NCBI GenBank assembly: GCA_040399905.1
Contig: JBBARG010000008.1
Span: 40,650 to 104,649, forward strand
Origin: Burkholderiaceae bacterium
GTDB taxonomy: Bacteria; Pseudomonadota; Gammaproteobacteria; Burkholderiales; Burkholderiaceae_D
DNA: 64,000 nucleotides
Direction: 5' to 3'
Part shown: one piece after another, positions 15,353-55,031 of the stretch
Layout of the letters: the number at the start of each line of letters is the position of its first letter
Position numbering within the stretch: position 1 is the first letter of the stretch
The notes under the pieces: model-generated
Database searches by the model: none
What the model was told of the DNA's origin: nothing
What the model saw: only the letters and a program-made list of their open reading frames with translations
Made by a program: the position numbers and the translations under genes

Positions 15353-16372
15353 TCACAGCAAGGAATCCTTGCCGACGCCGCGCTCCATCATTGCGTGCTT
15401 CAACCGAACCAGCCCTTCCTGCTGAATCTGCCTGACCCTTTCGCGCGTCACACCCATCTCCTCAGCCAGTTCTTCCAGTGTCGCAGGGTCGCCGTGGTCG
15501 AGCCCGAAGCGGCGCATGATGACGAGGCGCTGCTTGATGGGCATGGTGTGCAGCCAGTTTCGTAACAGCAGAAGCATCTCATGATGCTCGGCGTGTGCTT
15601 CTGGCCCGCCCTCTGTCGCGTCTGCCAGCAAGTCCAGCAAGCTTGATTGAGGATCGCCATCGAGCGGCGTATCAAGCGAGGTCACATGATCTGCCATGGA
15701 CAGCGTTGCCTGCACTTCTTCAACCGTGCGCTCGACCAGATGCGCTATGTCTTCGATGCTGGCATCGTGGCCATTCGACTGGCGTGCTTCAAGGTGGTAC
15801 TTCGCTCGCAATACCAAATTGAGCTCGCGTATCCTATGCACCGGCAAACGTATCGTGCGCGCCTGATTCATGATTGCGCGCTCTATGCTTTGCCGTATCC
15901 ACCAGGTCGCATAAGTAGAAAAACGAAAACCGCGCTCAGGTTCGAATTTTTCTATTGCATGGATCAAACCGAGGTTGCCTTCCTCTATGAGGTCGAGCAA
16001 AACAACGCCGCGATTCACGTAGTGCTTGGCGATCGACACGACCAGCCGCAGGTTATGTTCAATCATTGTCTGGCGCGCAGAAAAATCCCCTTGTCTGGAT
16101 AAAGTAGAGAAATGGATTTCCTGCTCGACTGTCAGCAAAGCGCGCAGCCCTATCTGGTTCAGATAACGCTGCGTAGCATCAGTAGAAAGTTCAGCGGCCA
16201 GTAAAGAGCGTAATTCTTCCAGACCTGCGACCTGCAGTTCTGGCTCTTCATGCACTGTGTCTTTGGTGACAGGGTCGCCGAACGTGCCGTCGACACCGTC
16301 AATTGCCGGCATGCCGGTCAGTTCTGCTGGTATATCGCCATCGTCCGGCGACTCACAGGCTTTGCGTGTCAT
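15353..16372 (-). CDS. rpoS: RNA polymerase sigma factor RpoS
   Basis: Sigma70 regions NLRLVVSIAK, GFRFSTYATWWIRQSIERA and TRERVRQIQ; directly downstream of nlpD. Confidence 0.93.
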   Translation of the reverse strand: MTRKACESPDDGDIPAELTGMPAIDGVDGTFGDPVTKDTVHEEPELQVAGLEELRSLLAAELSTDATQRYLNQIGLRALLTVEQEIHFSTLSRQGDFSARQTMIEHNLRLVVSIAKHYVNRGVVLLDLIEEGNLGLIHAIEKFEPERGFRFSTYATWWIRQSIERAIMNQARTIRLPVHRIRELNLVLRAKYHLEARQSNGHDASIEDIAHLVERTVEEVQATLSMADHVTSLDTPLDGDPQSSLLDLLADATEGGPEAHAEHHEMLLLLRNWLHTMPIKQRLVIMRRFGLDHGDPATLEELAEEMGVTRERVRQIQQEGLVRLKHAMMERGVGKDSLL

Positions 16373-16386
16373 TTGACGACTGTCTT

Positions 16387-17337
16387 TTAACGGTTAGGTA
16401 GCAGACCGGCAGGATCAACGGGCTTGCCCAGCTGACGGATTTCAAAATGCAGCTTGACGGTGTCGGAATCGGAATCGCCCATTTCAGCGATTCTTTGTCC
16501 TTTTATGACGTTTTGACCTTCCTTGACGAGGATGGTTTTGTTGTGTGCGTAGGCCGACACCAAGCCTTCGTTATGGTCAACGATGATGAGGTTGCCATAG
16601 CCACGCATATTTTGCGCATACAACACCGTGCCATCGCTGGCTGCCATCACTGGCTGGCCTGACAGGCCGGCAATATCTATGCCTTTGCGTGTTTGTTCAA
16701 ATGCTTTGATAACCTTGCCATCCGTAGGCCAGATGAAACGCACATTGCCGTTTGCCAGCGATTCTTTTTTATCATTGTCAGGTACGCGCGGCTGTAGTGA
16801 TTTATCTGACTGCGGTTTTTCTGACTGCAGCTTTTCCAACTGCTGAGACTGCTGCTGCATTTCAGCGAATGTCTGATCCGAATACAAACGCTTCTCGCCT
16901 GCAGGACTCGTCTTGGCGCCAGCTAAGGACGGTAAATTTTTACGAGGTAAGGCTTGCGCACCGTCCAGCGGGCGCACTTCAATACCGGAATCGAGATTGA
17001 CTGTGCCGACTTGTGGACCTTCCGGCGGCACAACGCGCAGCGACTGTCCTACCTTGATATCGTTGGCATTAGCCAGACGATTCCAGTCAACCAGATCGCG
17101 CCAGTTCTGACTGAACTGCTGCGAGATACGTAATAGCGTATCGCCTTTTTTTACCGTATAAAAACCTGGCTGATCAGCCACCAGCGTAGTCGGCTCGGCA
17201 TCTTTTTTTGCTGCCGCTTTAGGCGCAGTTTTAATACCGGTACGGTCATCAATGGGCGCATTGGAAGGCATTTCTGCGCACGAAGACAACAGCGCAGCGC
17301 CGAGGACCAGAAGAGATAGAGATAAGGAATTTTTCAT
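16387..17337 (-). CDS. nlpD: LysM/M23 lipoprotein NlpD
   Basis: Lipobox LSSC, LysM YTVKKGDTL, M23 domain with degenerate zinc site (RKGIDI, KLHFEIR). Confidence 0.92.
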   Translation of the reverse strand: MKNSLSLSLLVLGAALLSSCAEMPSNAPIDDRTGIKTAPKAAAKKDAEPTTLVADQPGFYTVKKGDTLLRISQQFSQNWRDLVDWNRLANANDIKVGQSLRVVPPEGPQVGTVNLDSGIEVRPLDGAQALPRKNLPSLAGAKTSPAGEKRLYSDQTFAEMQQQSQQLEKLQSEKPQSDKSLQPRVPDNDKKESLANGNVRFIWPTDGKVIKAFEQTRKGIDIAGLSGQPVMAASDGTVLYAQNMRGYGNLIIVDHNEGLVSAYAHNKTILVKEGQNVIKGQRIAEMGDSDSDTVKLHFEIRQLGKPVDPAGLLPNR

Positions 17338-17361
17338 CAGCAGATCATGTTCATTCTGCAT

Positions 17362-18246
17362 TTAACCAAGCGTGCCGGGCTTCAAAGGCACAAAGTGGCA
17401 ATGCTCGAGGGTTTCTGTTGTCCACTCATTACGGCTAACGCGGCAGATCAATTGCAGCACCTGATTGCGATTTCCAACCGGTGCGACAAGACGACCGCCG
17501 ATGGCCAGCTGATCAAGCAAAGCCTGCGGCACTTCCAGACCGGCTGCCGCCAGAATAATGCCGTCAAATGGGGCAACCTGCGGGAAACCCAGCATACCAT
17601 CCCCATAGTGCAACCGAAGATTGGCAATGCGTAATGGCCGCAAGTTGTTGCGCGCCAGTTCGTGCAAGGGCTTGATGCGCTCTATCGAATAGACTTCCTT
17701 TGCCACCTGCGCCAGCACGGCAGCCTGATAGCCGCAACCGGTGCCGATTTCTAGAACCTTGTCGAGCTTGCCGGTGGCAGTGGCCCGCATGACTTCAATC
17801 ATGCGCGCGACAATATACGGCTGCGAAATGGTCTGGTGATAGCCAATCGGCAAAGAAGCATCGATGTATGCCTGACTGGCCAGTCCCGGCTCCAGAAAAT
17901 AATGGCGCGGCACTGCTTCCATGGCGGCCAGTACTTGCTGGTCTTTCACGCCTTGCTGCGCAACCCGCTGCACCATTGCCCGGCGCACCGCTTCCGACAC
18001 CAGCGGCTGATTTGCCGGGCGCGCGGCTACAGTATTAGCACTAGCTGATTTTTTTTGCAGCGCTGAAGCTGGCGCATGTGGCGAACGGGGTGCATGTCGT
18101 GCAGCGTTCTGCGTGGCTGTCTGCGTGCTGTGACTGCGTGGCGGAACAAAGGAGCGATTACGACCGACATCGCCCGTAATAGAATCAAGCGTCAGCGGAA
18201 AACGCTTTTTGCCGTCGCCCTTACCGTCACTCTTACCATCGCTCAT
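17362..18246 (-). CDS. pcm: Protein-L-isoaspartate O-methyltransferase
   Basis: [17 protein letters not shown] and [13 protein letters not shown]; surE-pcm-nlpD order. Confidence 0.95.
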
Positions 18247-18980
18247 GCCAGCGCCTGCTTCAAGCGTTCAAGCTGCGATACATGGGTCAGGTCGATCTGC
18301 AGCGGGGTGATGGAAATGCAGCCATTCGCTGTCGCATGAAAGTCCGTGCCTTCGCTGACTTCCTTGGCTTTACCAACCGGACCGATCCAGAAAATTTCAT
18401 TACCGTGCGGGTCAGTGCTGCGTATGACCGGCTCGGATTCATGGCGCTTGCCCAGACGGGTTGCCACGATGGTTTGCAGACTTTCGTAAGGCAGGTTTGG
18501 GATATTCACGTTCAATAAAAACGGTTTCTGCAACGCGTCCAGCCGGCGCAATACGATGTCTTTGGCAACCCGCGCTGCCGCATCAATATGCGCCCAGCGA
18601 TGATCTACCTGTGAAAACGCAATCGACGGTATACCAAACAGAAAGCCTTCGGTGGCAGCAGCGACGGTACCGGAATAAAGCGTGTCGTCGCCCATGTTCT
18701 GGCCCTGGTTAATGCCGGAGACAACCAGATCGGGACGGTAATCCAGAATACCGGTCAGTGCGATATGCACGCAATCGCTGGGCGTGCCGTTGACCGAGTA
18801 AAACCCGTTGTGGGCTTTGACCACGCGCAGCGGTTTATCCAGCGTCAGCGAATTCGATGAACCACTGCGGTTGCTGTCTGGCGCTACCACGACAATATCG
18901 GCGATGCCAGCCAGTTGTTCGGCCAGTGCATTGATGCCCGGAGCGAGGTAGCCATCGTCGTTGCTAATCAGGATTCTCAT
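18243..18980 (-). CDS. surE: 5'/3'-nucleotidase SurE
   Basis: [27 protein letters not shown] and YSGTVAAA. Confidence 0.98.
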
Positions 18981-29481: not shown

Positions 29482-29868
29482 CTAAGCGAGCCAGACTGGA
29501 CCCTGATATTGCGCGACGGTGGCGTCATTGGTCAGCAAAGTAATCCCTTCTGTCATTGCCTGAGCAATTAGCAAGCGATCAAAAGGATCTTTGTGAATCG
29601 GAGCTAGCGTATCGATGGCGAGCACGTGCGCGCTATCAATCGACAACTCCAAATAGCCGTTATCGAGCAGTCCGCGCCGCAGAAGTCGTGCATCGATTTG
29701 GAAATCAGGGCGATTCAAGCCGCGCTTGATGGCGATCTCCCACAAACTCGCCGCACTGAAGATCAAGACATTTGCTGGATCGCTCATCAGTTCGAGCGCT
29801 CGAGCTGGCATGCGTTCGCTGCCAGCCGCGGCCCACAGCAGCAGATGCGTATCCAGCAGCAGCTTCAC
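29482..29868 (-). CDS. vapC: PIN-domain (VapC-type) toxin
   Basis: LLLDTH, SAASLWEIAIK and HKDPFDRLLIAQA acidic PIN motifs. Confidence 0.92.
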   Translation of the reverse strand: MKLLLDTHLLLWAAAGSERMPARALELMSDPANVLIFSAASLWEIAIKRGLNRPDFQIDARLLRRGLLDNGYLELSIDSAHVLAIDTLAPIHKDPFDRLLIAQAMTEGITLLTNDATVAQYQGPVWLA

Positions 29869-30110
29869 GCATCCGCTCCGAACAGTGCTTCTATCTCGCG
29901 GGCACCCATGGAGTTGAAATCGTCAGGCACTTTGCATTGCCCGGCCATGAATCCGAAACGCTGCATGGGCACCGGTTCAGGCGCATCCAGCGCGCTTACC
30001 TTCACTAGCGGTTTGCCAGCCTTGGCGATAACGAAAGACTCACCCTGCGCTGCCAGATCGACCAGTTTGGAAAGCTGCGTTTTTGCCTCATCAATGTTGT
30101 AGCTTTGCAT
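29865..30110 (-). CDS. Phd/YefM-family antitoxin
   Basis: NIDEAKTQLSKLVD.A..GE..VIAKAGKP; 4-bp overlap with the toxin. Confidence 0.92.
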   Translation of the reverse strand: MQSYNIDEAKTQLSKLVDLAAQGESFVIAKAGKPLVKVSALDAPEPVPMQRFGFMAGQCKVPDDFNSMGAREIEALFGADA

Positions 30111-31773: not shown

Positions 31774-32049
31774 TTAAGCCTGCCGCAAACGTGCCAACAA
31801 TGCACGCACATGCGGTAAATCGAGCTCATCTTTAGGCTCGTTATTGCCCAACAGCAGGCTCATCAAATCGTTATCCGTCAATTCCAGAATTCGCGTCAAC
31901 GCATCAACGTCAATATCTGAAAGCGTACTCTCGTGCGCATCCAGAAAACGGGTCAGGATCAAATCGTTTTCCAGCAGGCCGCGCCGGCTGCGCCAGCGCA
32001 AACGCGCGCGGCGGGCCGGATCGTCCTGATGGGATTCAGTCATTTGCAT
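31774..32049 (-). CDS. sdhE: Succinate dehydrogenase assembly factor SdhE
   Basis: RLRWRSRRGLLENDL motif; follows sdhB. Confidence 0.93.
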   Translation of the reverse strand: MQMTESHQDDPARRARLRWRSRRGLLENDLILTRFLDAHESTLSDIDVDALTRILELTDNDLMSLLLGNNEPKDELDLPHVRALLARLRQA

Positions 32050-32759
32050 CAGACCGCGCGGCGAACGAGCAATTCTTTGATCTTGCCGATTGCCTTGTTC
32101 GGATTGAGTCCTTTAGGACATACATCGACGCAGTTCATGATCGAATGGCAACGGAACAAGCGGTATGGATCTTCCAGATTGTCCAGACGTGCAGCGGTGT
32201 CTTCGTCGCGGCTGTCGGCGATGAAACGATACGCTTGCAGCAGGCCGGCCGGGCCGACGAACTTGTCCGGATTCCACCAGAACGACGGGCACGAAGTCGA
32301 GCAGCAGGCGCACAAAATGCACTCGTACAAACCGTCGAGTTCTTCGCGCTCTGCCGGCATTTGCAGACGTTCTTTTTCCGGCGGGATCGTGGTGTTGACC
32401 AGGAACGGCTTGATCGAATGATACTGCTTGAAAAAGTTGGTCATGTCGACGATCAGGTCGCGAATGACCGGCAAGCCCGGCAGCGGACGTAGCACGATAG
32501 GCTGGGATAACTCGTTCAGGTTCGTGGTGCAGGCCAGACCGTTCTTGCCATTGATGTTCATGGCGTCGGAGCCGCACACGCCTTCGCGGCAGGAACGACG
32601 CAGCGCGAGCGAATCGTCGACATCGGACTTGATGCGCTGCAAGGCGTCGAGCAGCATCTTGTCGGTGTCTTGCAGCTCGACCGTCAGGTCTTGCATGTAA
32701 GGCTTGGCATCCTTGTCCGGATCGTAGCGGTAGATTTGAAATTTGACTGTACGTGGCAT
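32049..32759 (-). CDS. sdhB: Succinate dehydrogenase Fe-S subunit (operonic copy)
   Basis: [22 protein letters not shown] and [12 protein letters not shown] cluster motifs. Confidence 0.98.
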
Positions 32760-32771
32760 GATGTTTTCGCT

Positions 32772-34550
32772 TTAGAAAGTACGTGCTTTAGGCTTGAAGG
32801 TTTCCACCGTCAATGGCTTGGTCACAACAGGCTTGTAGTCGAGGCGATTGCCTTCGGAATACCACAGCGAGTGCTTCATCCAGTTTTCATCGTCGCGCTT
32901 GTCGAAATCGCGATGCGCATGCGCGCCGCGTGATTCTTTACGGGCAGCAGCGGAGACGATGGTGGCCTTGGCGGCTTCGATCAGGTTGTCCAGCTCCAGC
33001 GCTTCAACACGGGCTGTGTTGAAAACCTTGGACTTGTCCTTGAACGCTACCTGCTTGCGACGCTCGTCGAGTTCGGCAATGGCTTTGACGCCCTGCTGCA
33101 GCAAATCATCGGTACGGAACACGCTGCAATACTGTTGCATCGCGCCGCGGATACCGTTGGCGACATCTTGCACGCGCTCGGAACCCGTGGAGGTTTCCAG
33201 CTTGTCCATACGGTCCAGCGCTTTGTCCGCGCCATCGGCAGGCATGTCCTTGTGGCTCTGCGCCTTCAGGTTCGAAGCAACGATATGGTTGCCGGCGGCG
33301 CGACCAAAAACCAGCAGGTCGAGCAAGGAGTTGGTACCCAGACGATTGGCGCCATGTACCGACACGCACGCGCATTCGCCGATGGCGTACAAGCCATTGA
33401 CGATGGTGTTCGGATTGCCGTTTTTCGGCGCAACAACCTGACCGTGAATGTTGGTCGGGATGCCGCCCATCTGATAGTGAATCGTCGGTACGACAGGAAT
33501 GGCTTCCTTGGTAGCGTCGACATTGGCGAACTTGTGGCCGATTTCCAAAATCGATGGCAGACGTTTCCTGATGGTCTCGGCGCCGATGTGACGCAGGTCC
33601 AGCAGCACGTGATCCTTGTTCGGGCCGCAGCCGCGACCTTCCTTGATTTCCTGATCCATCGAACGCGAGATGAAGTCACGCGGCGCCAGATCTTTCAGAG
33701 TCGGCGCATAGCGCTCCATGAAACGCTCGCCTTCGCTGTTGATCAGAATGCCGCCTTCGCCGCGCACGCCTTCGGTAATCAGCACACCTGCACCAGCTAC
33801 ACCGGTTGGGTGGAACTGCCAGAATTCCATGTCTTCGAGTGGCAAGCCGGCACGTGCAGCCATGCCCATACCGTCGCCGGTATTGATGAACGCATTGGTC
33901 GACGCAGCCCAGATACGGCCAGCGCCACCGGTAGCGAAGATGGTGGTCTTGGCTTCGAGGATCAGCATTTCGCCGGTCTCGATTTCGAGTGCGACTACAC
34001 CGATGACGTCGCCTTCGGCGTCACGCACCAGATCAATCGCCATCCATTCAACAAAGAAGTGGGTCTTGGCGCGCACGTTACGCTGGTACAGCGTGTGCAG
34101 CATCGCATGCCCAGTACGGTCAGCAGCGGCGCACGCACGTTGCACCGGTTTTTCGCCGAAGTTTGCGGTGTGGCCGCCGAACGGACGCTGGTAAATGGTG
34201 CCGTCAGGATTGCGGTCAAACGGCATGCCGAAGTGTTCAAGTTCGTAAACAACTTTTGGCGCTTCGCGGCACATGAATTCAATCGCGTCCTGGTCGCCGA
34301 GATAGTCACTCCCCTTGACGGTGTCGAACATGTGCCAGTACCAGTTGTCTTCCGACATATTGCCGAGTGACGCACCGATACCGCCCTGAGCTGCAACTGT
34401 GTGCGAGCGAGTCGGGAATACTTTTGACAGCACGGCGACGTTGAGACCGGCTTCAGCCAGTTGCAGCGACGCGCGCATGCCGGAGCCGCCGGCACCGATG
34501 ATGACGGCGTCGAAACGGCGGGATGGAATACCTGTTTTTATGGCTGACAC
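32772..34550 (-). CDS. sdhA: Succinate dehydrogenase flavoprotein subunit
   Basis: GAGGSG, FAD-His [10 protein letters not shown] and HGANRLG; GTG start at 34550 with a GGAG RBS. Confidence 0.97.
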
Positions 34551-34552
34551 GA

Positions 34553-34918
34553 TTACACTCTCCAAAGAATCTGCACCGTCCAGCCGGCGCATGCGACCAG
34601 CCACAGTATCGTTAACACTTGCAGCAGCAAACGAATTGCTACTGGCTTTACGTAGTCCATCCAGATGTCGCGCATGCCTACCCACACGTGGTAATACAAC
34701 CCGAAGAAGGTGACGAGGGCAAACAGCTTGAACCACTGCTGCGCAAACAGACCGGCCCAGCCCTCATAGCTGAACTCGCGTGCGCCGAAAAATACAACCA
34801 GCAAAACGATGGTGAAGACCGCCATCACGATGGCGGTAATGCGCTGCGCCAGCCAGTCTTTGAGACCATAGTGCGCGCCGACGACCAGACGCTTGGGTCC
34901 GATATTATTGTTAGCCAT
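34553..34918 (-). CDS. sdhD: Succinate dehydrogenase membrane anchor subunit
   Basis: [27 protein letters not shown]; three TM segments. Confidence 0.95.
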
Positions 34919-35329
34919 TTAAAACGCTCCGAACAGTTTAAGGGCAACCAGCACGGCCAGCGGAATGCTGACAGCAAACACGCTGATTGCGGATTTGGCT
35001 GCGCCTTCTTTTGTAAGACCAATGTGCAGGTCCATGATCAGGTGACGGATGCCGGCGCAGAAGTGATGCAGATACGCCCACGACAACGCAAGAATGAACA
35101 GCTTGACCAGCCAGTGACTGACATAGCCCTGCAGATGGGCAAACGAAATTTCTGAGGTGATGCTCTGGTCGAACAGGTACAAAATAAACGGCAGCAGCAG
35201 GAACATCATGAACCCGCTGATGCGATGAAAAATCGACACCATGCCGGCAGCCGGCAAGCGGTAATTCATTAGCTGCGTGATGTGGATGTTAGTAAATTGC
35301 TTACGTGTTTTCTTTATTGCTTCAGTCAT
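34919..35329 (-). CDS. sdhC: Succinate dehydrogenase cytochrome b556 subunit
   Basis: SIFHRISG and HHFCAGIRHLIMD. Confidence 0.95.
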   Translation of the reverse strand: MTEAIKKTRKQFTNIHITQLMNYRLPAAGMVSIFHRISGFMMFLLLPFILYLFDQSITSEISFAHLQGYVSHWLVKLFILALSWAYLHHFCAGIRHLIMDLHIGLTKEGAAKSAISVFAVSIPLAVLVALKLFGAF

Positions 35330-48755: not shown

Positions 48756-50939
48756 TCAGAACGCGTACTTCACACCGGCCTGGAAGGTACGTGGCATACC
48801 GACCAAAATACCGCGAGTGCGATCCACAACGTAGGTATGGTCGGCGAGGTTTTTACCTGCAACGAACAAAGTGGCTTTACCTACTGTGTAGTTAACCGTG
48901 GCGTTCCAGATGCCATATGCATCGATCGGGCCGGTGCGGCCATCACCAGTCACGTTTACAGTCGACGTGTTGGCAAAGTCGCTGAACTGCTTACCGACGT
49001 ATACGTACTCAACCCGCGTATTCCAGTTTTCCGATGACTTGTAACCGAGCGTGATTGTGGCTTGATGCTCTGGTGCGTAAGGCAAGCGCTTGCCAGTTTG
49101 ATTAACCTCGGCCGTTCCATTCGGACGATTGAAGGCGGAACGCTGCTCTGCAGTTGGCAAGTAAGTCAAAGCGGCGCGGACGAACAGGTTGCCTGCCAGC
49201 TGGGAGGTGAGCTTGTCAATTTGCCCGGCAAACTCAAGTCCTTGGTACAGAGCCTTACCCTCGGAGTAGTTGGTACTGGTGCTGGAAGCGCCGCCACCGG
49301 CTATGCTGCCGGCCTGCACATTGTTGCTGAAGTCGTTGCGGAATAGTGCGACATCGATGAAGCTGTGTCGCGTAGGCGAAGTACGCAAACCGAGCTCCAT
49401 GTTGACGCTGCGTTCAGGATTCAAGTCAACCGTACCACCTGCGCTATCAATCGCATCTTCGACACGCGCTGGGCTGAAGCCTTTGTGGATGCCGCCGTAG
49501 ACGACGGTATCGCTGCTGGCGCGGTAGGTGGCGCCAACGCCTGGAATGACTTCAGTCATTGAATCTTTGCCACGCCCCTGACCTGAAAGGTAACCGATAC
49601 GTTCGTTGCGAATATTTTCGAGACGAACAATCGGTGTCACTGCGAACTGCTCGCTGAATTCAAACCGGTTGGCGACGAAAGTCGACAGCGCCATCGTTGT
49701 GCGCTTCTGGTCTTCCTGCAGGTGTGTGACGCCACTGGTGTCACCATTTAGATATTTAGTGTAGTTCTCGTAACGAAGTTGCTTTCTTTCCTGCGACTCG
49801 CTATGCACCTTGATACCGTACTCAAGCTGGTTATTCATGCCGAACGCGGTGTGGTTTTGCTGAACTCGCGAATCTATACCTAAGGTTGTGTAGCTGCGCA
49901 GACGGCCGTTCACCTGACAACCGTCTACTGTGAGTACATCGCCGTTAATACGCGTGCTTCCGGAAGGACAGTCCAACGTACTTGACGCCTGCCGCCACCA
50001 GTTACGATCAAATTGTGCGCCATAGACACTGGTAGTCAGCGTCTTGCCAGCACCAAGATTCAAGAGGTGGGTTGCTGACACACCGGTACGTTTGAAATCA
50101 AGATGGTCGTTCTTGAAAGGATTGTAGCGGGCACCCTGCCGTGCGAATTCCTTTTCGGTCAAGCCCGAGTAGGTGTTGGTCGAATTTTCATCGTAATGGG
50201 TAGCACGCAGGATCAGTTTGTTATGCGAATTCAAATCACCAGCCCACTTGAAGTTCAGGTCATTGATCGCGCTGTGAACGTTATCGCGCGCGCCATCCGA
50301 CTCCTTGCGGTATGCATCCAGAATCGCGCCATTGCCGGTCACCATCAGATGGCCATTCAAGTAACCACGTGTGCCGGCGGCCAGACCGACGAGGCCTCCA
50401 AATGCCTTTTGCGGCTCCGGTGTGATGTAGTTGATGACGCCGCCAGCGGTTTGCGGACCGAAGCGCAGCACTTGGCTGCCCTTGCTGACTTCGATCGAAT
50501 CGTAGCGATCAATCGGCGGATGATAGTAGCTGGCGTTGTCGCCATAAGGTGCAAACGACAGTGGCAGGCCGTCTTCCAGCAGCAGAACTTTGGTTGAGCG
50601 CGTCGGGTTCAGGCCACGAATGCCGATGTTGGGACGCAGCCCCAGCCCTTCTTCATCCCGCACATGCACGCCTGGCACTTTACGCAGCGCCTCATTCACT
50701 GAAAACACGCGGCTTTGCTCCAACTCTGCCGCATCCACAATGTGCGCAGAACCCTGACTAAATTTCGAATTTGATTGCGTGCCGATGACGTCCACACGTG
50801 GAAGAGTCGGCTCTGTCGCTGCGGCCACTGTCTGGGCGTGAAGTTCGGCGTGGCTTCCCATGCTCAGCAAGACTGCAATGGCCAGCGGAGTCATTTTCAA
50901 GGAAGGTGGACACATGAAACGGCGCGACGGATACATCAA
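48756..50939 (-). CDS. TonB-dependent receptor, FecA-like
   Basis: Signal peptide, plug RGLNPTRSTKVLLLEDGLP..APY, barrel ending KNLAD..Y...PRTFQAGVKYAF. Confidence 0.9.
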   Translation of the reverse strand: MMYPSRRFMCPPSLKMTPLAIAVLLSMGSHAELHAQTVAAATEPTLPRVDVIGTQSNSKFSQGSAHIVDAAELEQSRVFSVNEALRKVPGVHVRDEEGLGLRPNIGIRGLNPTRSTKVLLLEDGLPLSFAPYGDNASYYHPPIDRYDSIEVSKGSQVLRFGPQTAGGVINYITPEPQKAFGGLVGLAAGTRGYLNGHLMVTGNGAILDAYRKESDGARDNVHSAINDLNFKWAGDLNSHNKLILRATHYDENSTNTYSGLTEKEFARQGARYNPFKNDHLDFKRTGVSATHLLNLGAGKTLTTSVYGAQFDRNWWRQASSTLDCPSGSTRINGDVLTVDGCQVNGRLRSYTTLGIDSRVQQNHTAFGMNNQLEYGIKVHSESQERKQLRYENYTKYLNGDTSGVTHLQEDQKRTTMALSTFVANRFEFSEQFAVTPIVRLENIRNERIGYLSGQGRGKDSMTEVIPGVGATYRASSDTVVYGGIHKGFSPARVEDAIDSAGGTVDLNPERSVNMELGLRTSPTRHSFIDVALFRNDFSNNVQAGSIAGGGASSTSTNYSEGKALYQGLEFAGQIDKLTSQLAGNLFVRAALTYLPTAEQRSAFNRPNGTAEVNQTGKRLPYAPEHQATITLGYKSSENWNTRVEYVYVGKQFSDFANTSTVNVTGDGRTGPIDAYGIWNATVNYTVGKATLFVAGKNLADHTYVVDRTRGILVGMPRTFQAGVKYAF

Positions 50940-50967: not shown

Positions 50968-50987
50968 AATAAGAACGATTCCTATTA
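50968..50987 (-). promoter_or_regulatory. Putative Fur box upstream of the TonB receptor
   Basis: Minus strand TAATAGGAATCGTTCTTATT resembles the Fur consensus; about 30 bp from the start of an iron-receptor-type gene. Confidence 0.5.
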
Positions 50988-51038
50988 CCCACAATTGTAA
51001 GCAATTAGTCAGCCTTTATTATCGGAATTTACTATCAA

Positions 51039-51052
51039 TTGATGTACATCAA
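51039..51052. promoter_or_regulatory. FNR/Anr box
   Basis: TTGAT-GTAC-ATCAA is an exact consensus match, inside the perfect 18-bp palindrome AATTGATGTACATCAATT (51037-51054). Confidence 0.8.
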
Positions 51053-51211
51053 TTTATTTTGGCTATCAATTCTTAACTGAAAGCGGCTTATCAAGCCAAA
51101 TGAACAAAGTCCTTAGCCCGCGCTCAAATTGAAGAATTGATAAAAAAACGGATGCTTCCAGAATTACAAGCCTCTGTATGGCATGCCGAAAACTGCAACG
51201 AAGGAAATTCG

Positions 51212-51928
51212 GTGACCAATAACGCTGCCATCAAACTGAAAATTTTTCGTTACGATCCAGACCGTGATGATCGTCCTGCCATGCAGGACATAGCGATTGT
51301 TCCTGAGCACGGGGATAGGATGCTGCTGGATTTACTCGAACGAATACGGCACCAGATTGATGACAGCCTGTCCTTCCGTCGCTCTTGCCGCGAAGGCGTC
51401 TGCGGCTCGGACGGGATGAATATCAACGGCAAGAACGGGCTCGCTTGTCTCGCCAACCTGAAAGAATTAACACAACCGATTGTGCTGCGCCCCCTTCCCG
51501 GGCTGCCGGTCATTCGCGATCTGATCGTCGATATGACCTCGTTCTGGAAGCAATACCATTCGATCAAGCCGTTCTTGATCAATGACACGCCGCCGCCTGA
51601 ATTGGAACGTTTGCAAAGCCCGGATGAACGTGATCTGTTGAACGGACTCTACGAATGCATACTGTGCGCCTGCTGTTCCAGCGCCTGCCCTACCTACTGG
51701 TGGAATCCGGACAAGTTTGTTGGTCCGGCCGGTCTGCTGCAGGCGTATCGCTTCATCGCTGACAGCAGGGACACGGCGCTGGCAGAACGGCTCGACAATC
51801 TCAATGATGCATACCGGTTGTTTCGTTGCAGAACCATCATGAACTGTACCGACGTCTGCCCGAAGGGATTGAATCCGGCTGCCGCCATCAGCAACATTCG
51901 CAACTTACTGGTTAAACGCTCCGTTTAA
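51212..51928 (+). CDS. sdhB: Orphan second succinate dehydrogenase Fe-S subunit
   Basis: All three cluster motifs intact ([34 protein letters not shown]); GTG start after an AAGGA RBS; highly similar to 32049-32759. Confidence 0.92.
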   Translation: MTNNAAIKLKIFRYDPDRDDRPAMQDIAIVPEHGDRMLLDLLERIRHQIDDSLSFRRSCREGVCGSDGMNINGKNGLACLANLKELTQPIVLRPLPGLPVIRDLIVDMTSFWKQYHSIKPFLINDTPPPELERLQSPDERDLLNGLYECILCACCSSACPTYWWNPDKFVGPAGLLQAYRFIADSRDTALAERLDNLNDAYRLFRCRTIMNCTDVCPKGLNPAAAISNIRNLLVKRSV

Positions 51929-52266
51929 TTTCCAGCTATTCAGACAGCATGAAGGCATCGCTTTAAGTGAATGCCAATTGCGCCCTCTCCCCTGTCAACA
52001 CTAATTTGAAGTGCAAGCACGTCTGAATAAGTGCTGCACGTTTTTTCGACACGAATACATTGTCGATAAATTTGCTTAGCAAAATGCAAGTAAAGATTCT
52101 TGCAAGAAATTGAATACTTCTATGTAACTAATTATTTTTGTAAATATGTGCTTCGGGACAAAAAGTTTCTACTTTGCGGAATACTATGTACAGAGTTAGC
52201 GACAAATTCGTAATTGAAGAACGCTAAAAATACACGCGCTCACTCAACAAGATAAGGACATCAAAA

Positions 52267-53196
52267 ATGATGAAAATCCGTTCCCTGCTTTTCGTACTGG
52301 GGATGCTATTGAGTTCTGCGTCTTCAGCGACGGTTCAAGTCAGCATTGGCATCAACTTACCCCTTTATCCGAACCTTGTCGTCGTTCCCGGTTATCCCGT
52401 GTACTACGCACCGCAACTACATGCGAACTACTTTTTTTATGACGGCATGTACTGGGTCTATCAGAATGACTACTGGTATTCGAGCTCTTGGTACAACGGC
52501 CCTTGGTGGATTGTGGGGCCAGAGCTCGTACCCGTATTTATTTTAAGAATTCCTGTTCGTTACTATCGCCAACCGCCTGCATTCTTCATTGGGTGGCGCT
52601 CTGATTCTTCGCCGCGCTGGGATGAACACTGGGGCCGTGACTGGAGCCAGAATAGAAATGGTTGGGACAGATGGGATCACCGCTCTGCACCACGACCCGC
52701 AGCCCTGCCTTTGTACCAACGCGACTATTCCGGCGATCGGTATCCAAAACAATTAGAGCAGCAGCAAGAGCTGCATCAGCGTAATTACAATCACCAACCC
52801 CGCGATCCAGTGGTCCGGCAGCGCTATCAAGAACAGTCATCACAATCACGTGATGAAGAGATGCAGAGTTCACCGCCAAACTCTGCACAGCAAGGACGAC
52901 CGGAATTTCAGGATCAGCGACGGCAGCAACGGCAAGACAGGGATCTGCGTGAACAAGCAGAACGTGAACAGTCAGGACGTGAACAATCAGGACGCGATCA
53001 ACGAAGACGCGAACAGTCCTCACGAAATGATGGCATAGAAACCAACAGCGACATGCAAAGGCCAACACGTCCAAACTTTGAGGAAGGTCGTCCTGAATAC
53101 CAGGAGCGCCGGCAACGATCGCAGCCGGCTCCGGAATTTCGCGATCAGCAGAATCCAAATCGTGGGCAGAAAGAGCGCAGGGGTGGCAACGAATAA
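52267..53196 (+). CDS. Hypothetical secreted protein with Tyr/Trp/Pro-rich domain and Arg/Gln/Glu-rich tail
   Basis: AAGGA RBS, signal peptide, YWVYQNDYWYSSSWYNGPW segment, low-complexity tail. Confidence 0.72.
   Translation: MMKIRSLLFVLGMLLSSASSATVQVSIGINLPLYPNLVVVPGYPVYYAPQLHANYFFYDGMYWVYQNDYWYSSSWYNGPWWIVGPELVPVFILRIPVRYYRQPPAFFIGWRSDSSPRWDEHWGRDWSQNRNGWDRWDHRSAPRPAALPLYQRDYSGDRYPKQLEQQQELHQRNYNHQPRDPVVRQRYQEQSSQSRDEEMQSSPPNSAQQGRPEFQDQRRQQRQDRDLREQAEREQSGREQSGRDQRRREQSSRNDGIETNSDMQRPTRPNFEEGRPEYQERRQRSQPAPEFRDQQNPNRGQKERRGGNE
52948..53022 (+). repeat. In-frame 15-bp tandem repeat, five copies
   Basis: CGTGAACAAGCAGAA/CGTGAACAGTCAGGA/CGTGAACAATCAGGA/CGCGATCAACGAAGA/CGCGAACAGTCCTCA encode REQAE REQSG REQSG RDQRR REQSS. 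Confidence 0.8.
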
Positions 53197-53319
53197 TTCA
53201 CGCAAATTCTTGCGTCAGAAATTTACCAAGATGAATGTACCAAGATGAATGTAACAAGATGAAATTGAATGACTTCAATTCTCTTAAAACTTTTATAAAT
53301 GACAAACAGGAGAACCAAG

Positions 53320-53766
53320 ATGAAATCATTTTTATTCGCGGCTTCAGTAGCTGTTGTAACGCTCACTACCTCAGCGTTTGCTGCTGATGTCGGTGTCTCG
53401 GTCAGCATCGGTCAGCCCGGCTTTTATGGGCGAATCGATTTAGGCAGCTTCCCTTCACGCCCGCCAGTGATTTACGGGCAACCCAGAATCATTGAACGAT
53501 CCGTTATTGTCGGGGATCCGGTTTACCTGCGCGTGCCACCTGGCCATCGTAAAAACTGGGGCAAGCATTGCGGTCAATATAATGCCTGCGGCGAGCAGGT
53601 CTACTTTGTGCAGGATAACTGGTATGAGCGTGAATATATTCCTCAGTATCGTGAGCAACATGGCGGCCGTGGGGATGACCGCGATGATCGCGATGACCGC
53701 GGTGGCAAGCACGGTAAAAATGGACATGGCCGACATGATAAAGATAACGGTCGCGGCCACAACTAA
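53320..53766 (+). CDS. Hypothetical secreted protein
   Basis: AGGAG RBS, signal peptide, VGVSVSIGQPGFYGRID, PVYLRVPPGH.KNW.KHC..YNACG..VYFV, DDR-repeat His/Lys tail. Confidence 0.78.
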   Translation: MKSFLFAASVAVVTLTTSAFAADVGVSVSIGQPGFYGRIDLGSFPSRPPVIYGQPRIIERSVIVGDPVYLRVPPGHRKNWGKHCGQYNACGEQVYFVQDNWYEREYIPQYREQHGGRGDDRDDRDDRGGKHGKNGHGRHDKDNGRGHN

Positions 53767-53895
53767 TTGATTTCAACAATTCCTCAATCTGCCTAAGCTC
53801 TTATGAGCGTAGGCGCATTGAGTGGCAACTCAAGAGCTGTTTTGTTAGTCGGCGTTTGCCATGACTGTAACTTTAAATTATCAAGGAAAAAAATC

Positions 53896-54237
53896 ATGAA
53901 TAAAACCAAACGCATTCCTGCCCTTATCTTTGCGGGTGTCATGGCAACCGCTCTGGGCTGCACCACCATGACTGGTCAGGACAAATCATCAACGACTAGT
54001 CGTGAGAGCACTGGTCAGTATGTGGATGACACTATCCTTACGACAAAAGTAAAAGCGGCAGTGCTGCAAGAACCTTTGCTGAAATCGTATGAAATAAATG
54101 TTGAAACCTACAAGGGTGTCGTACAGTTGAGCGGATTTGTAAGCTCGCAAGCAGAAATCAACAAAGCGGTAGAAATCACACGCACCATTAAGGGAGTTGT
54201 CTCTGTTAAGAACAACATGCTCGTCAAAGGCAAATAA
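53896..54237 (+). CDS. BON-domain (OsmY-like) lipoprotein
   Basis: AAGGA RBS, ALGC lipobox, GQYVDDTILTTKVKAA...INVETYKGVVQLSGFV. Confidence 0.9.
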   Translation: MNKTKRIPALIFAGVMATALGCTTMTGQDKSSTTSRESTGQYVDDTILTTKVKAAVLQEPLLKSYEINVETYKGVVQLSGFVSSQAEINKAVEITRTIKGVVSVKNNMLVKGK

Positions 54238-54248
54238 TTAAAATAATT

Positions 54249-55031
54249 TCAGTGCAGCGGCTCTGCTGCGCCCGGCATAGTCGAACCAGACATGCGCTGC
54301 ATGGGCGCTCCCAGCGTCGCTTCTTCAAACCATGCCTGAACTTGCTGCAAGTGTTCACGCTCATGTTGAAGAGCCGTTCTGAAGTTTGCCGCAATTGAAT
54401 CATGATGCTGGTTTTCAGCTAGCGCAATCAGCATTTCCCAACCGCTGTTGTCGGCCATTTCAGCAATCAGTATCGCGTGCAGCGATTGTGTGACTGTCGT
54501 GCGTGGGTCCAGGACGGCATTCATCAAGCCGCCAGATTCAATTCCGGCCAGATCGGCACAGGGTGTCTGTGCGGTAGGATCAGCACCGAGTCCCTGGATT
54601 GCATCAGCTACCATGGCGAAATGCGCTGCTTCCTGATCGCGAATCTGTATTAGCTTATCGAGTGGCACGGTCGTCGTGCCATTCTGTTCCAGCGCCTGAA
54701 CCTTGCAAATTAACGCGTCATATAGCCGGGTACCGCTGCGCTCGAAGGCAAGCCGCTCGCCGAGCTTGTCGATGAACAGCTGCGGCATGTTCCCGGTGAT
54801 CATGGAGGTCGCCGACGACATGACACCCGTAAGCGTGCCCGGTATGGGCACCGAGCCTAGTTCGTCTGCCTCAGTAATGTAATCAGCGCGCATGTCATCC
54901 AACGCCGAGGTGTCGGGATTGATGGAGTCATCCGGCATCACGTTGCGGGTTGCATCACTCATCGAGCTGCTATCAATTGGCGACATTTGTACGCCGGTTC
55001 TATTCATTCCCATTGCTGGCTGTTCTTTCAT
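54249..55031 (-). CDS. Ferritin-like domain protein
   Basis: Four-helix di-metal pattern LAFERSGTRLYD...QEAAH...AEMADNSGWE...HEREH; AGGAG RBS. Confidence 0.8.
   Translation of the reverse strand: MKEQPAMGMNRTGVQMSPIDSSSMSDATRNVMPDDSINPDTSALDDMRADYITEADELGSVPIPGTLTGVMSSATSMITGNMPQLFIDKLGERLAFERSGTRLYDALICKVQALEQNGTTTVPLDKLIQIRDQEAAHFAMVADAIQGLGADPTAQTPCADLAGIESGGLMNAVLDPRTTVTQSLHAILIAEMADNSGWEMLIALAENQHHDSIAANFRTALQHEREHLQQVQAWFEEATLGAPMQRMSGSTMPGAAEPLH

Follow-up and report, generated by a model that had tools for sequence, protein, structure and literature searches.

A lone sdhB gene downstream of an FNR-type palindrome belongs to an old Arg207/Arg230 paralogue family of the Burkholderiales and may supply an alternative subunit of complex II

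Why would a bacterium with a complete succinate dehydrogenase operon also carry a second gene for the iron-sulfur subunit of that enzyme, standing alone and about 16 kb away? The question is raised by a 64,000-nucleotide stretch of DNA from a Burkholderiaceae bacterium (GenBank assembly GCA_040399905.1, contig JBBARG010000008.1, positions 40,650 to 104,649; hereafter the window). In it, an earlier note made from the sequence alone had picked out a lone sdhB paralogue, here called sdhB2, under a perfect FNR box and with arginine in place of a quinone-site histidine, and had proposed that the cell swaps this one subunit of complex II under low oxygen. To our knowledge, complex II of bacteria is regarded as an invariable enzyme of four subunits, and its known alternatives are duplicates of whole operons. 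The answer that we reach is broader than the earlier note, because it concerns a whole gene family, and it is less dramatic on two points, namely that the link to FNR is local and that the arginine is a normal evolutionary state. Judging from sequence comparison, we lean slightly towards the reading as a whole in which SdhB2 is a functional alternative iron-sulfur subunit forming an isoenzyme of complex II, and we hold the control of sdhB2 by oxygen with less confidence than that.

Is sdhB2 an intact gene for a genuine SdhB? The longest open reading frame at the locus runs from a TTG at 51137 to a stop codon at 51926-51928 (51137-51928), and the best-fitting start within it is the GTG at 51212, which gives a gene at 51212-51928 (forward strand, stop included) and a 238-residue product identical to the database gene call P0001. 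This start is preferred because GAAGGAA stands upstream of it and because 238 residues is the length of P0001 and of nearly all homologues; the GAAGGAA ribosome-binding site (51200-51206, forward strand) lies 5 nt before the GTG and is kept in all orthologous upstream regions. SdhB2 aligns without gaps to the operonic SdhB1 at 73% identity (170 of 233 residues) and passes the curated NCBIfam models NF004616 (353.2 bits, cut-off 228) and TIGR00384 (259.6 bits, cut-off 88), confirming the description of an intact second copy similar to the operonic one. The cysteine motifs of the [2Fe-2S], [4Fe-4S] and [3Fe-4S] clusters are all present, including CRTIMNCTDVCP, and match those of E. coli SdhB (SdhCDAB, PDB 1NEK, chain 1NEK_B) column for column. 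The two proteins have the same length and fold class (E = 1e-98) and share the cluster cysteines, Pro160, Trp163, Trp164 and Ile209. They differ at two basic residues, since SdhB2 has arginine at the positions of both His207 and Lys230, and in gene context, E. coli sdhB being the last gene of sdhCDAB and sdhB2 a lone gene. Apart from operon context and His207, all sequence criteria make SdhB2 a member of the SdhB family.

The motifs read as had been claimed, FRCRTIMNC and CPTYWWN in SdhB2 against FRCHSIMNC and CPSFWWN in SdhB1. The first arginine (codon AGA, 51830-51832, forward strand) aligns exactly on His207 of 1NEK_B, the residue altered in the H207T mutant of PDB 2WP9, and the second (codon CGC, 51899-51901, forward strand) occupies the position of Lys230. 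The segment C159-P-T-Y-W-W-N165 (51686-51706, forward strand) holds the final cysteine of the CxxCxxCxxxCP motif and the quinone-site residues Pro160, Trp163 and Trp164, together with the substitutions S161T and F162Y. Four of the five members of the quinone-site set (Pro160, Trp163, Trp164, His207 and Ile209) are kept, position 207 being the arginine. The ratio of non-synonymous to synonymous substitution (dN/dS) against orthologues is 0.03-0.05, with dS up to 0.29-1.1, and by this measure sdhB2 is an intact gene under strong purifying selection. No sdhA, sdhC or sdhD lies within 16 kb of it, as had been noted; its surroundings encode a TonB-dependent receptor, KatG, secreted proteins that match no family, a BON-domain protein and copper-resistance functions.

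Is the arginine a recent change in one gene or the mark of a lineage? As a sample of the family we took the best 120 protein-database homologues of SdhB2. Nearly all of them read FRCR[TS]I[ML]NC, 86% carry S161T and/or F162Y, and they come from Massilia, Duganella, Noviherbaspirillum and other Burkholderiales. Every member with a visible context is a single gene with no sdhA, sdhC or sdhD beside it, and the neighbourhoods differ, with a Host_attach protein and an SDR protein in N. massiliense, a SnoaL-like protein in a second genome, and shikimate kinase with a sugar transporter in a third. The operonic control consisted of 75 sdhB genes in sdhCDAB operons of named betaproteobacteria, taken from the matches listed in a scan with back-translated SdhB2, and almost all of these read FRCH[ST]IMNC and CPSFWWN. 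In E. coli numbering, the operonic and lone proteins are separated at position 111 (operonic Phe, lone Trp in 93%), position 200 (Pro, Ala in 85%), position 207 (His, Arg in 98%), position 223 (Thr, Ala in 97%) and position 230 (Lys in 95% of His-type copies, Arg in 100%), where the figures for the two arginines come from 114-119 homologues compared; weaker shifts occur at positions 227 and 228. All of the diagnostic positions except 111 fall in the final forty residues, the N-terminal [2Fe-2S] domain has no family-specific change, and Pro160, Trp163, Trp164 and Ile209 are invariant throughout the family. In E. coli SdhB we take the C-terminal part to border on the membrane anchors, the ubiquinone pocket, the [3Fe-4S] cluster and a heme propionate, and the N-terminal [2Fe-2S] domain to make the contact with the flavoprotein. 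Cheng et al. (BBA 2013) reportedly found that R205 and the otherwise invariant K230 of E. coli SdhB tune the [3Fe-4S] and heme potentials.

The age of the family was addressed with a neighbour-joining tree rooted on E. coli, from which columns 207 and 230 were left out (100 bootstraps). The lone family is monophyletic in 94 of the 100 replicates, all betaproteobacterial sequences stand together at 99, and the lone family, the operonic clade and the Burkholderia orphans group at 82. This topology, together with the coupled K230R, rules out sdhB2 as a recent duplicate of sdhB1, and the simple His-to-Arg derivative of the operonic copy that the earlier note had described gives way to a member of an old family. 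On the tree and the residue patterns, the lone Arg-type sdhB genes are a large, old, monophyletic and selected paralogue family in the Burkholderiales. K230R accompanies H207R in three groups, the lone family, the sdhC'D'B' triads described below and a gammaproteobacterial group, and their co-occurrence in three separate groups makes the two changes look functionally coupled; the betaproteobacterial operonic SdhB proteins that have Arg207 retain Lys230. The lone Arg-type gene of Burkholderia ambifaria (L049; L numbers are our locus handles) is represented in four RNA-seq assemblies from one study, in which the orphan contigs (depth 6-14) are near-identical to L049 and the operonic-paralogue contigs (depth 10-23) are more divergent and run into long contigs. 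Both genes appear to be transcribed in the same cells, although contig depth is a poor measure and carry-over of DNA is possible. Lone sdhB genes are known in cyanobacteria, and the names sdhB1 and sdhB2 are in use. A limited check of the full-text literature turned up no account of either the lone Arg-type family of betaproteobacteria or the triads without sdhA. Membership of sdhB2 in the low-oxygen-activated (lxa) locus of Burkholderia cenocepacia was considered and rejected, as the lxa paper names no sdh gene.

With which partners would such a subunit work? The sole sdhA in the window (32772-34556, start approximate, reverse strand, from the translation of its open reading frame) encodes the presumed flavoprotein partner of both SdhB1 and SdhB2 and is 88-90% identical to SdhA of Paucimonas, Noviherbaspirillum, Herminiimonas, Collimonas and Undibacterium, which places the organism in the Oxalobacteraceae. 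Beside it lie sdhB1 (32049-32759, reverse strand), whose His-type product passes the curated SdhB models, and the membrane-anchor genes sdhD (34553-34918) and sdhC (34919-35329), which together span 34553-35329 on the reverse strand and were likewise read from translations; SdhC retains the S-x-x-x-R quinone-site motif (SIFHRISG). The gene order, sdhC-sdhD-sdhA-sdhB-sdhE-gltA-sucA-sucB-lpd, is that of the standard betaproteobacterial cluster, and it lies about 16 kb from sdhB2. Because no flavoprotein or anchor gene travels with sdhB2, and because its flavoprotein-facing domain carries none of the family-specific changes, SdhB2 would most likely dock on the SdhA of this operon and on the housekeeping SdhC and SdhD, replacing SdhB1 or competing with it. 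The product would be an isoenzyme with two basic residues changed beside the [3Fe-4S] cluster, the heme propionate and the ubiquinone pocket. Shifted cluster and heme potentials, altered quinone handling and altered binding of ligands at the ubiquinone-binding (Q) site are the likely effects, and the direction of catalysis need not change.

Does Arg207 by itself imply an unusual enzyme? When metagenome contigs were scanned for DNA that encodes FRCRTIMNC, at least 120 loci came up, among them at least 19 full-length, complete sdhC-D-A-B operons, whose SdhA is 55-61% identical to that of the window. The SdhB of one of them (L190) matches proteins of Rickettsiella grylli, Aquirickettsiella and seven named Kangiella species, and 119 of its best 120 listed matches have Arg207 (P0240-P0359). 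The operonic SdhB of these Gammaproteobacteria (Kangiella and Rickettsiella/Aquirickettsiella) has, like SdhB2, Arg207 (99%) and Arg230 (99%). Unlike SdhB2, their proteins come from sdhCDAB-type operons (metagenomic loci such as L190); they are 58-64% identical to SdhB2 and branch outside the betaproteobacterial sequences. Arg207 also occurs in 7 of 80 betaproteobacterial operonic SdhB proteins (~9%; for example a Collimonas and several Burkholderiaceae), and at least four more betaproteobacterial Arg207 fragments with gltA downstream came from the metagenome scan. The earlier note had held that its idea would be refuted if arginine were common in ordinary betaproteobacterial operons without a kinetic effect, and the operonic copies with Arg207 bear this out in part. 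In Botrytis cinerea, SdhB H272R confers resistance to boscalid, as the earlier note had stated, and all 20 residues at H272 gave viable strains (PMC7451986). Since Arg207 is native in the Kangiella and Rickettsiella operons, it supports a normal enzyme; on this comparison it is compatible with an ordinary housekeeping succinate dehydrogenase, and by itself it is no ground for expecting catalysis in reverse or antibiotic resistance. The proposal of a retuned Q site therefore stands as far as it concerns changed residues at the [3Fe-4S]/quinone face, and the reversal of catalysis and the antibiotic resistance that had been offered with it do not follow from the arginine. As a normal evolutionary state, Arg207 should temper the use of this residue as a resistance marker in genome scans, and the Kangiella and Rickettsiella enzymes offer natural His207Arg variants in cultured aerobes.

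When would the second subunit be made? The palindrome upstream of sdhB2 (51034-51057; 12-nt arms, 92% complementary) is of the FNR/ANR type. Its core, TTGATGTACATCAA at 51039-51052, is a perfect TTGAT-N4-ATCAA and the only one in the 64 kb, where chance would give 0.07; of 100 shuffled sequences, 6 contain one. A search that allowed one mismatch found just one further site. The core, which is embedded in a near-perfect 24-nt palindrome, ends 160 bp 5' of the GTG at 51212, so the earlier description of a perfect FNR palindrome about 160 bp upstream was accurate. DNR of betaproteobacteria, a relative of FNR that responds to nitric oxide (NO), has the same TTGAT-N4-ATCAA core within a C/G-flanked consensus, and the A/T flanks of the window palindrome fit the FNR/ANR form better than that consensus (PMC1274295). 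In the window species and its nearest relatives, sdhB2 would probably be controlled by a regulator of the CRP/FNR family (FNR/ANR type) through this palindrome, and the use of SdhB2 would then be tied to the availability of oxygen (or NO) in a lineage-specific manner.

Orthologous sdhB2 loci that share the gene order of the window (receptor, sdhB2, then two genes for secreted proteins) were found at 98%, 97% and 93% protein identity. The 98% relatives (L092, L093) keep both FNR half-sites around a changed spacer, TTGATGTGTATCAA; with a dS of 0.29 between the window and the 98% relative, the retention of 10 of 10 half-site bases is mild evidence of constraint in that sub-lineage only. A number of observations weigh against an oxygen-controlled isoenzyme. 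The 97% relatives (L087, L089, L091) read TTTATAAATTTCAA, with two core mismatches and the essential G gone, and the 93% relative (L002) has no recognisable FNR site at the corresponding place. None of the further lone Arg-type sdhB genes that were compared (L001, L013, L051, L067, L094, L096 and all metagenomic lone loci) has an FNR box upstream; the best matches there have 2-5 mismatches and lack a TGA-N6-TCA core, those of the metagenomic loci reaching 2 mismatches at best. On neither strand of the window is there a good -10 element at the class II distance (-41.5) from the site, and no gene for a CRP/FNR regulator is encoded in the 64 kb. Only DNA metagenomes contain the source organism, a freshwater metagenome-assembled bacterium, and the one RNA run contains 5% of the words. 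The partnership of SdhB2 with SdhA, SdhC and SdhD is a prediction from gene content, and a second sdhC/sdhD pair may lie beyond the window. A common regulatory motif was sought upstream of 23 lone Arg-type sdhB genes (FNR box, TGA-N6-TCA, NsrR-type boxes, perfect 5-nt inverted repeats and common 8-mers), and none was found outside the window lineage. By this distribution the FNR box is a recent, local acquisition confined to the window species and the 98% relatives, and the general co-occurrence of the arginine with an FNR box that the earlier note had suggested surveying does not hold. What survives of the low-oxygen subunit swap is the alternative complex II subunit, which is the natural reading of an intact, selected gene with its partners elsewhere; the box is a local feature.

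Could the site belong to the gene on its other side? The intergenic region is common to sdhB2 and a divergent gene for a TonB-dependent receptor (48756-50939, reverse strand), whose product gives TIGR01783 and FecA-like matches below cut-off and whose orthologues, in conserved synteny, have the plug and barrel Pfam domains. It is possible, if short of probable, that the palindrome serves the receptor gene (or both genes) while sdhB2 is transcribed from an oxygen-independent promoter of its own, an arrangement that is compatible with SdhB2 as an alternative subunit. The centre of the palindrome is nearer to the receptor start (~107 bp from 50939) than to the sdhB2 start (~166 bp). A sigma-70-like sequence, TTGATA-16-CAGAAT, lies at 51137-51164, about 90 bp 3' of the box, its -35 block is kept in all relatives, including those that lost the box, and selection on sdhB2 is equally strong in the box-less relatives. 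However, sigma-70-like matches in this intergenic region are no more frequent than in shuffled sequence, and the box lacks canonical -10 spacing on the receptor side too. As the site lies in a divergent intergenic region and has no canonical spacing on either side, it may serve either gene, and it may activate or repress.

Some further features of this region were recorded. In the 97% relatives (L087, 2520-2740, and L088-L091), the sdhB2 leader contains an insertion of about 190 bp, richer in G+C than its surroundings, between the conserved TTGATAAAA block and the ribosome-binding site, and this insertion and the loss of the FNR core occur in the same genomes. Two conserved palindromes, AATAAGAACGATTCCTATT and AATTGTAAGCAATT, stand between the receptor gene and the FNR site (50968-50986 and 50991-51004); in the relatives AATAAGAACGATTCCTATT forms a perfect inverted repeat, and it lies directly upstream of the receptor start. 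A Fur box beside the receptor gene was sought and rejected, since nothing there matches the E. coli Fur consensus at three or fewer mismatches, including AATAAGAACGATTCCTATT, AATTGTAAGCAATT and the conserved palindrome AATAAGAACGATTC(C/T)TATT.

A second alternative concerns the conditions under which Arg-type subunits are used, and it comes from a sister arrangement. At least about 35 full-length metagenome loci, and a further locus in a Limnobacter genome, have an sdhC'-sdhD'-sdhB' triad and lack sdhA over distances of up to 10 kb (including L067:4315-5752, L219:6632-8696, L221:7251-8696, L101, L102, L111, L118, L158, L167, L198, L201 and L220). Their SdhB' proteins have Arg207 and Arg230, form a clade of their own (95% bootstrap) and mostly read CPSSWWN, and their anchors pass the SdhC and SdhD models at 30-40% identity to the housekeeping anchors. 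The hosts are Usitatibacter, Crenobacter, Limnobacter, Oxalobacteraceae and Burkholderiaceae, and the triads are common in Burkholderiales and Neisseriales. Like sdhB2, the triads are accessory to a standard operon and have no flavoprotein gene of their own; unlike sdhB2, they bring their own cytochrome b/anchor subunits, and they often sit in Rrf2/hemerythrin clusters. A cluster of this kind (L219:1168-12262, also L220) encodes an Rrf2 regulator, a SufT-like DUF59 protein, two DUF2249 proteins, three hemerythrins, a ferredoxin-NADP reductase-like protein, a cupin and a DUF3470 ferredoxin, and a near-identical metagenome contig adds NnrS. Homologues of these neighbours stand beside at least about 19 other Arg-type loci (for example L101, L111, L137, L169, L170, L173, L192 and L193), and in L122 a lone Arg-type sdhB lies directly 3' of an Rrf2-hemerythrin pair. 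A search for the NsrR-like box AAGATrTAT-N5-ATAyATCTT found matches upstream of sdhC' in L127 (~613) and L170 (~1833), and beside a globin-like gene in L138 (~1435). As separate observations, a DUF488 gene sometimes lies between sdhD' and sdhB', and in Nitrosospira/Nitrosomonas metagenome-assembled genomes (L038, L070, L071, L083) a His-type sdhB adjoins gltA with no sdhA detected upstream (some of the contigs being short), unlike other betaproteobacterial operons.

These contexts suggest, as far as gene neighbourhood can indicate, that nitrosative or Fe-S stress is the setting in which some Arg-type modules operate, which is a lead for the family at large and not for the window gene. Extended to sdhB2, the idea would be that under NO, oxidants or iron stress the metal-bearing complex II subunits are exchanged for an Arg-type SdhB, with or without anchors of its own, the FNR-type site being the sensor of one lineage. 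The sdhA-less triads beside Rrf2, hemerythrin and NnrS genes argue for it, as does the absence of such neighbours from all 75 operonic His-type loci; the NsrR-like boxes of L127 and L170 and the shared core of NO-responsive DNR (PMC1274295) point the same way. Yet such neighbours and NsrR-like boxes are both absent from the lone clade to which sdhB2 itself belongs (about 25 loci), and the Rrf2 protein scores 127.7 bits with NsrR (best, below cut-off) and 120 bits with RirA and is therefore not assignable to NsrR over RirA. For sdhB2 itself we regard stress replacement as a somewhat doubtful possibility, and one that is compatible with an alternative complex II subunit. A wider scheme, which we offer tentatively and with about the same reserve, is that complex II is modular in betaproteobacteria, with one SdhA common to a His207/Lys230 module and to accessory Arg207/Arg230 modules (a lone SdhB or SdhC'D'B'). 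Regulators of oxygen, NO or Fe-S stress (the FNR-type site here, Rrf2/NsrR-like operators elsewhere) would switch between the modules, and the [3Fe-4S]/heme/quinone junction of the accessory ones would tolerate or exploit those conditions.

We think it unlikely that SdhB2 is an inhibitor-insensitive isoform that keeps complex II active against natural Q-site inhibitors from competitors or from the cell itself. Its appeal comes from the position of Arg207 at the main hot spot of carboxamide resistance, where fungal H272R confers resistance to boscalid (PMC7451986), from the family-typical S161T, F162Y and K230R, which line the same pocket, and from the spread of the family in Burkholderiales of soil and fresh water that share their habitats with antibiotic producers. 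However, no biosynthetic or resistance genes recur beside family members, whose contexts are unrelated, and Arg207 is native in the sole operonic enzymes of Kangiella and Rickettsiella, so that no inhibitor is needed to explain it; a literature search gave no bacterial second sdhB acting as a self-resistance gene. The more specific idea of a self-resistance gene within a biosynthetic gene cluster is ruled out by the genomic context here and in other family members. That SdhB2 works outside complex II, as a three-cluster ferredoxin-like subunit of another flavoenzyme or as a soluble electron carrier, is very improbable: sdhB2 is uncoupled from sdhA, sdhC and sdhD in every genome examined, but its quinone-site and anchor-facing C-terminal region is fully kept, with Pro160, Trp163, Trp164 and Ile209 invariant in the family, no alternative conserved partner gene accompanies it, and it is 73% identical to a bona fide SdhB.

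How does an alternative SdhB subunit of complex II compare with known systems? The stage-specific complex II of Ascaris suum has a different flavoprotein and small anchor but an unchanged Fe-S subunit, and in mycobacteria the whole operons are duplicated (Sdh1/Sdh2). These are alternative forms of complex II under different oxygen regimes, whereas in the sdhB2 case the Fe-S subunit alone is duplicated. The alt-SDHC of Zymoseptoria tritici is a dispensable paralogous subunit that replaces the standard one and alters the quinone/inhibitor pocket. It embodies the same concept of one extra subunit, but it concerns a eukaryote and subunit C, and it is a presence/absence polymorphism, in contrast to the order-wide family described here. 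By analogy, SdhB2 would work like these eukaryotic subunit-isoform systems (the fungal alternative SdhC and Ascaris) and unlike the mycobacterial whole-operon duplicates. The Ascaris suum enzyme (PDB 3VR8 family) is also among the structure matches of SdhB2. The H272R/Y/L alleles of Botrytis cinerea SdhB affect the same residue, with the same His-to-Arg change in the first of them (PMC7451986). The fungal alleles are recent, fungicide-selected point mutations in a single essential gene, whereas the arginine of SdhB2 is old, fixed, carried by a separate paralogue and coupled to K230R. If true, single-subunit replacements and sister three-subunit ones that share a flavoprotein would make respiration flexible in a further way within the order of Burkholderia, Massilia and numerous bacteria of soil and fresh water. 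In the Arg207/Arg230 pair there is also a natural experiment on two positions already singled out, by mutagenesis and by fungicide resistance, as determinants of the [3Fe-4S] potential and of quinone/inhibitor binding, and the family offers ready-made variants for enzymology and for the study of intrinsic insensitivity to succinate dehydrogenase inhibitors.

The remaining observations concern the surroundings of sdhB2 and the rest of the window. An Rfam scan of the sdhB2 leader and of the long downstream spacer gave no match, and a terminator candidate, a hairpin with T6 at ~52011-52046, was discarded as its folding is no better than that of shuffled sequences (z = -1.2). Downstream of sdhB2, the forward-strand genes at 52267-53196, 53299-53766 and 53803-54237 encode signal-peptide proteins with no family match and a BON-domain, OsmY-like lipoprotein. 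In one of the secreted proteins a Trp/Tyr-rich N-terminal half precedes a long tail rich in Gln, Arg and Glu; the tail of the other is rich in His, Gly, Asp and Arg, and both genes maintain their synteny with sdhB2 in all close relatives. On the reverse strand, 54249-55031 encodes a 260-residue protein with weak, sub-threshold similarity to ferritin-like/COQ7 di-iron domains, which is conserved in a 98% relative (L092:6543-7325). Within the tricarboxylic acid cycle cluster, between sucA and gltA, a PIN-domain toxin-like open reading frame (128 residues) overlaps an antitoxin-like one (81 residues) at 29482-30110 on the reverse strand. Finally, a surE-pcm-nlpD-rpoS string (SurE, PCMT, a LysM/M23 peptidase and a 339-residue sigma-70 family protein) occupies 15353-18980 on the reverse strand, implying that an RpoS-type stationary-phase sigma factor is present and is another candidate regulator for stress isoenzymes.

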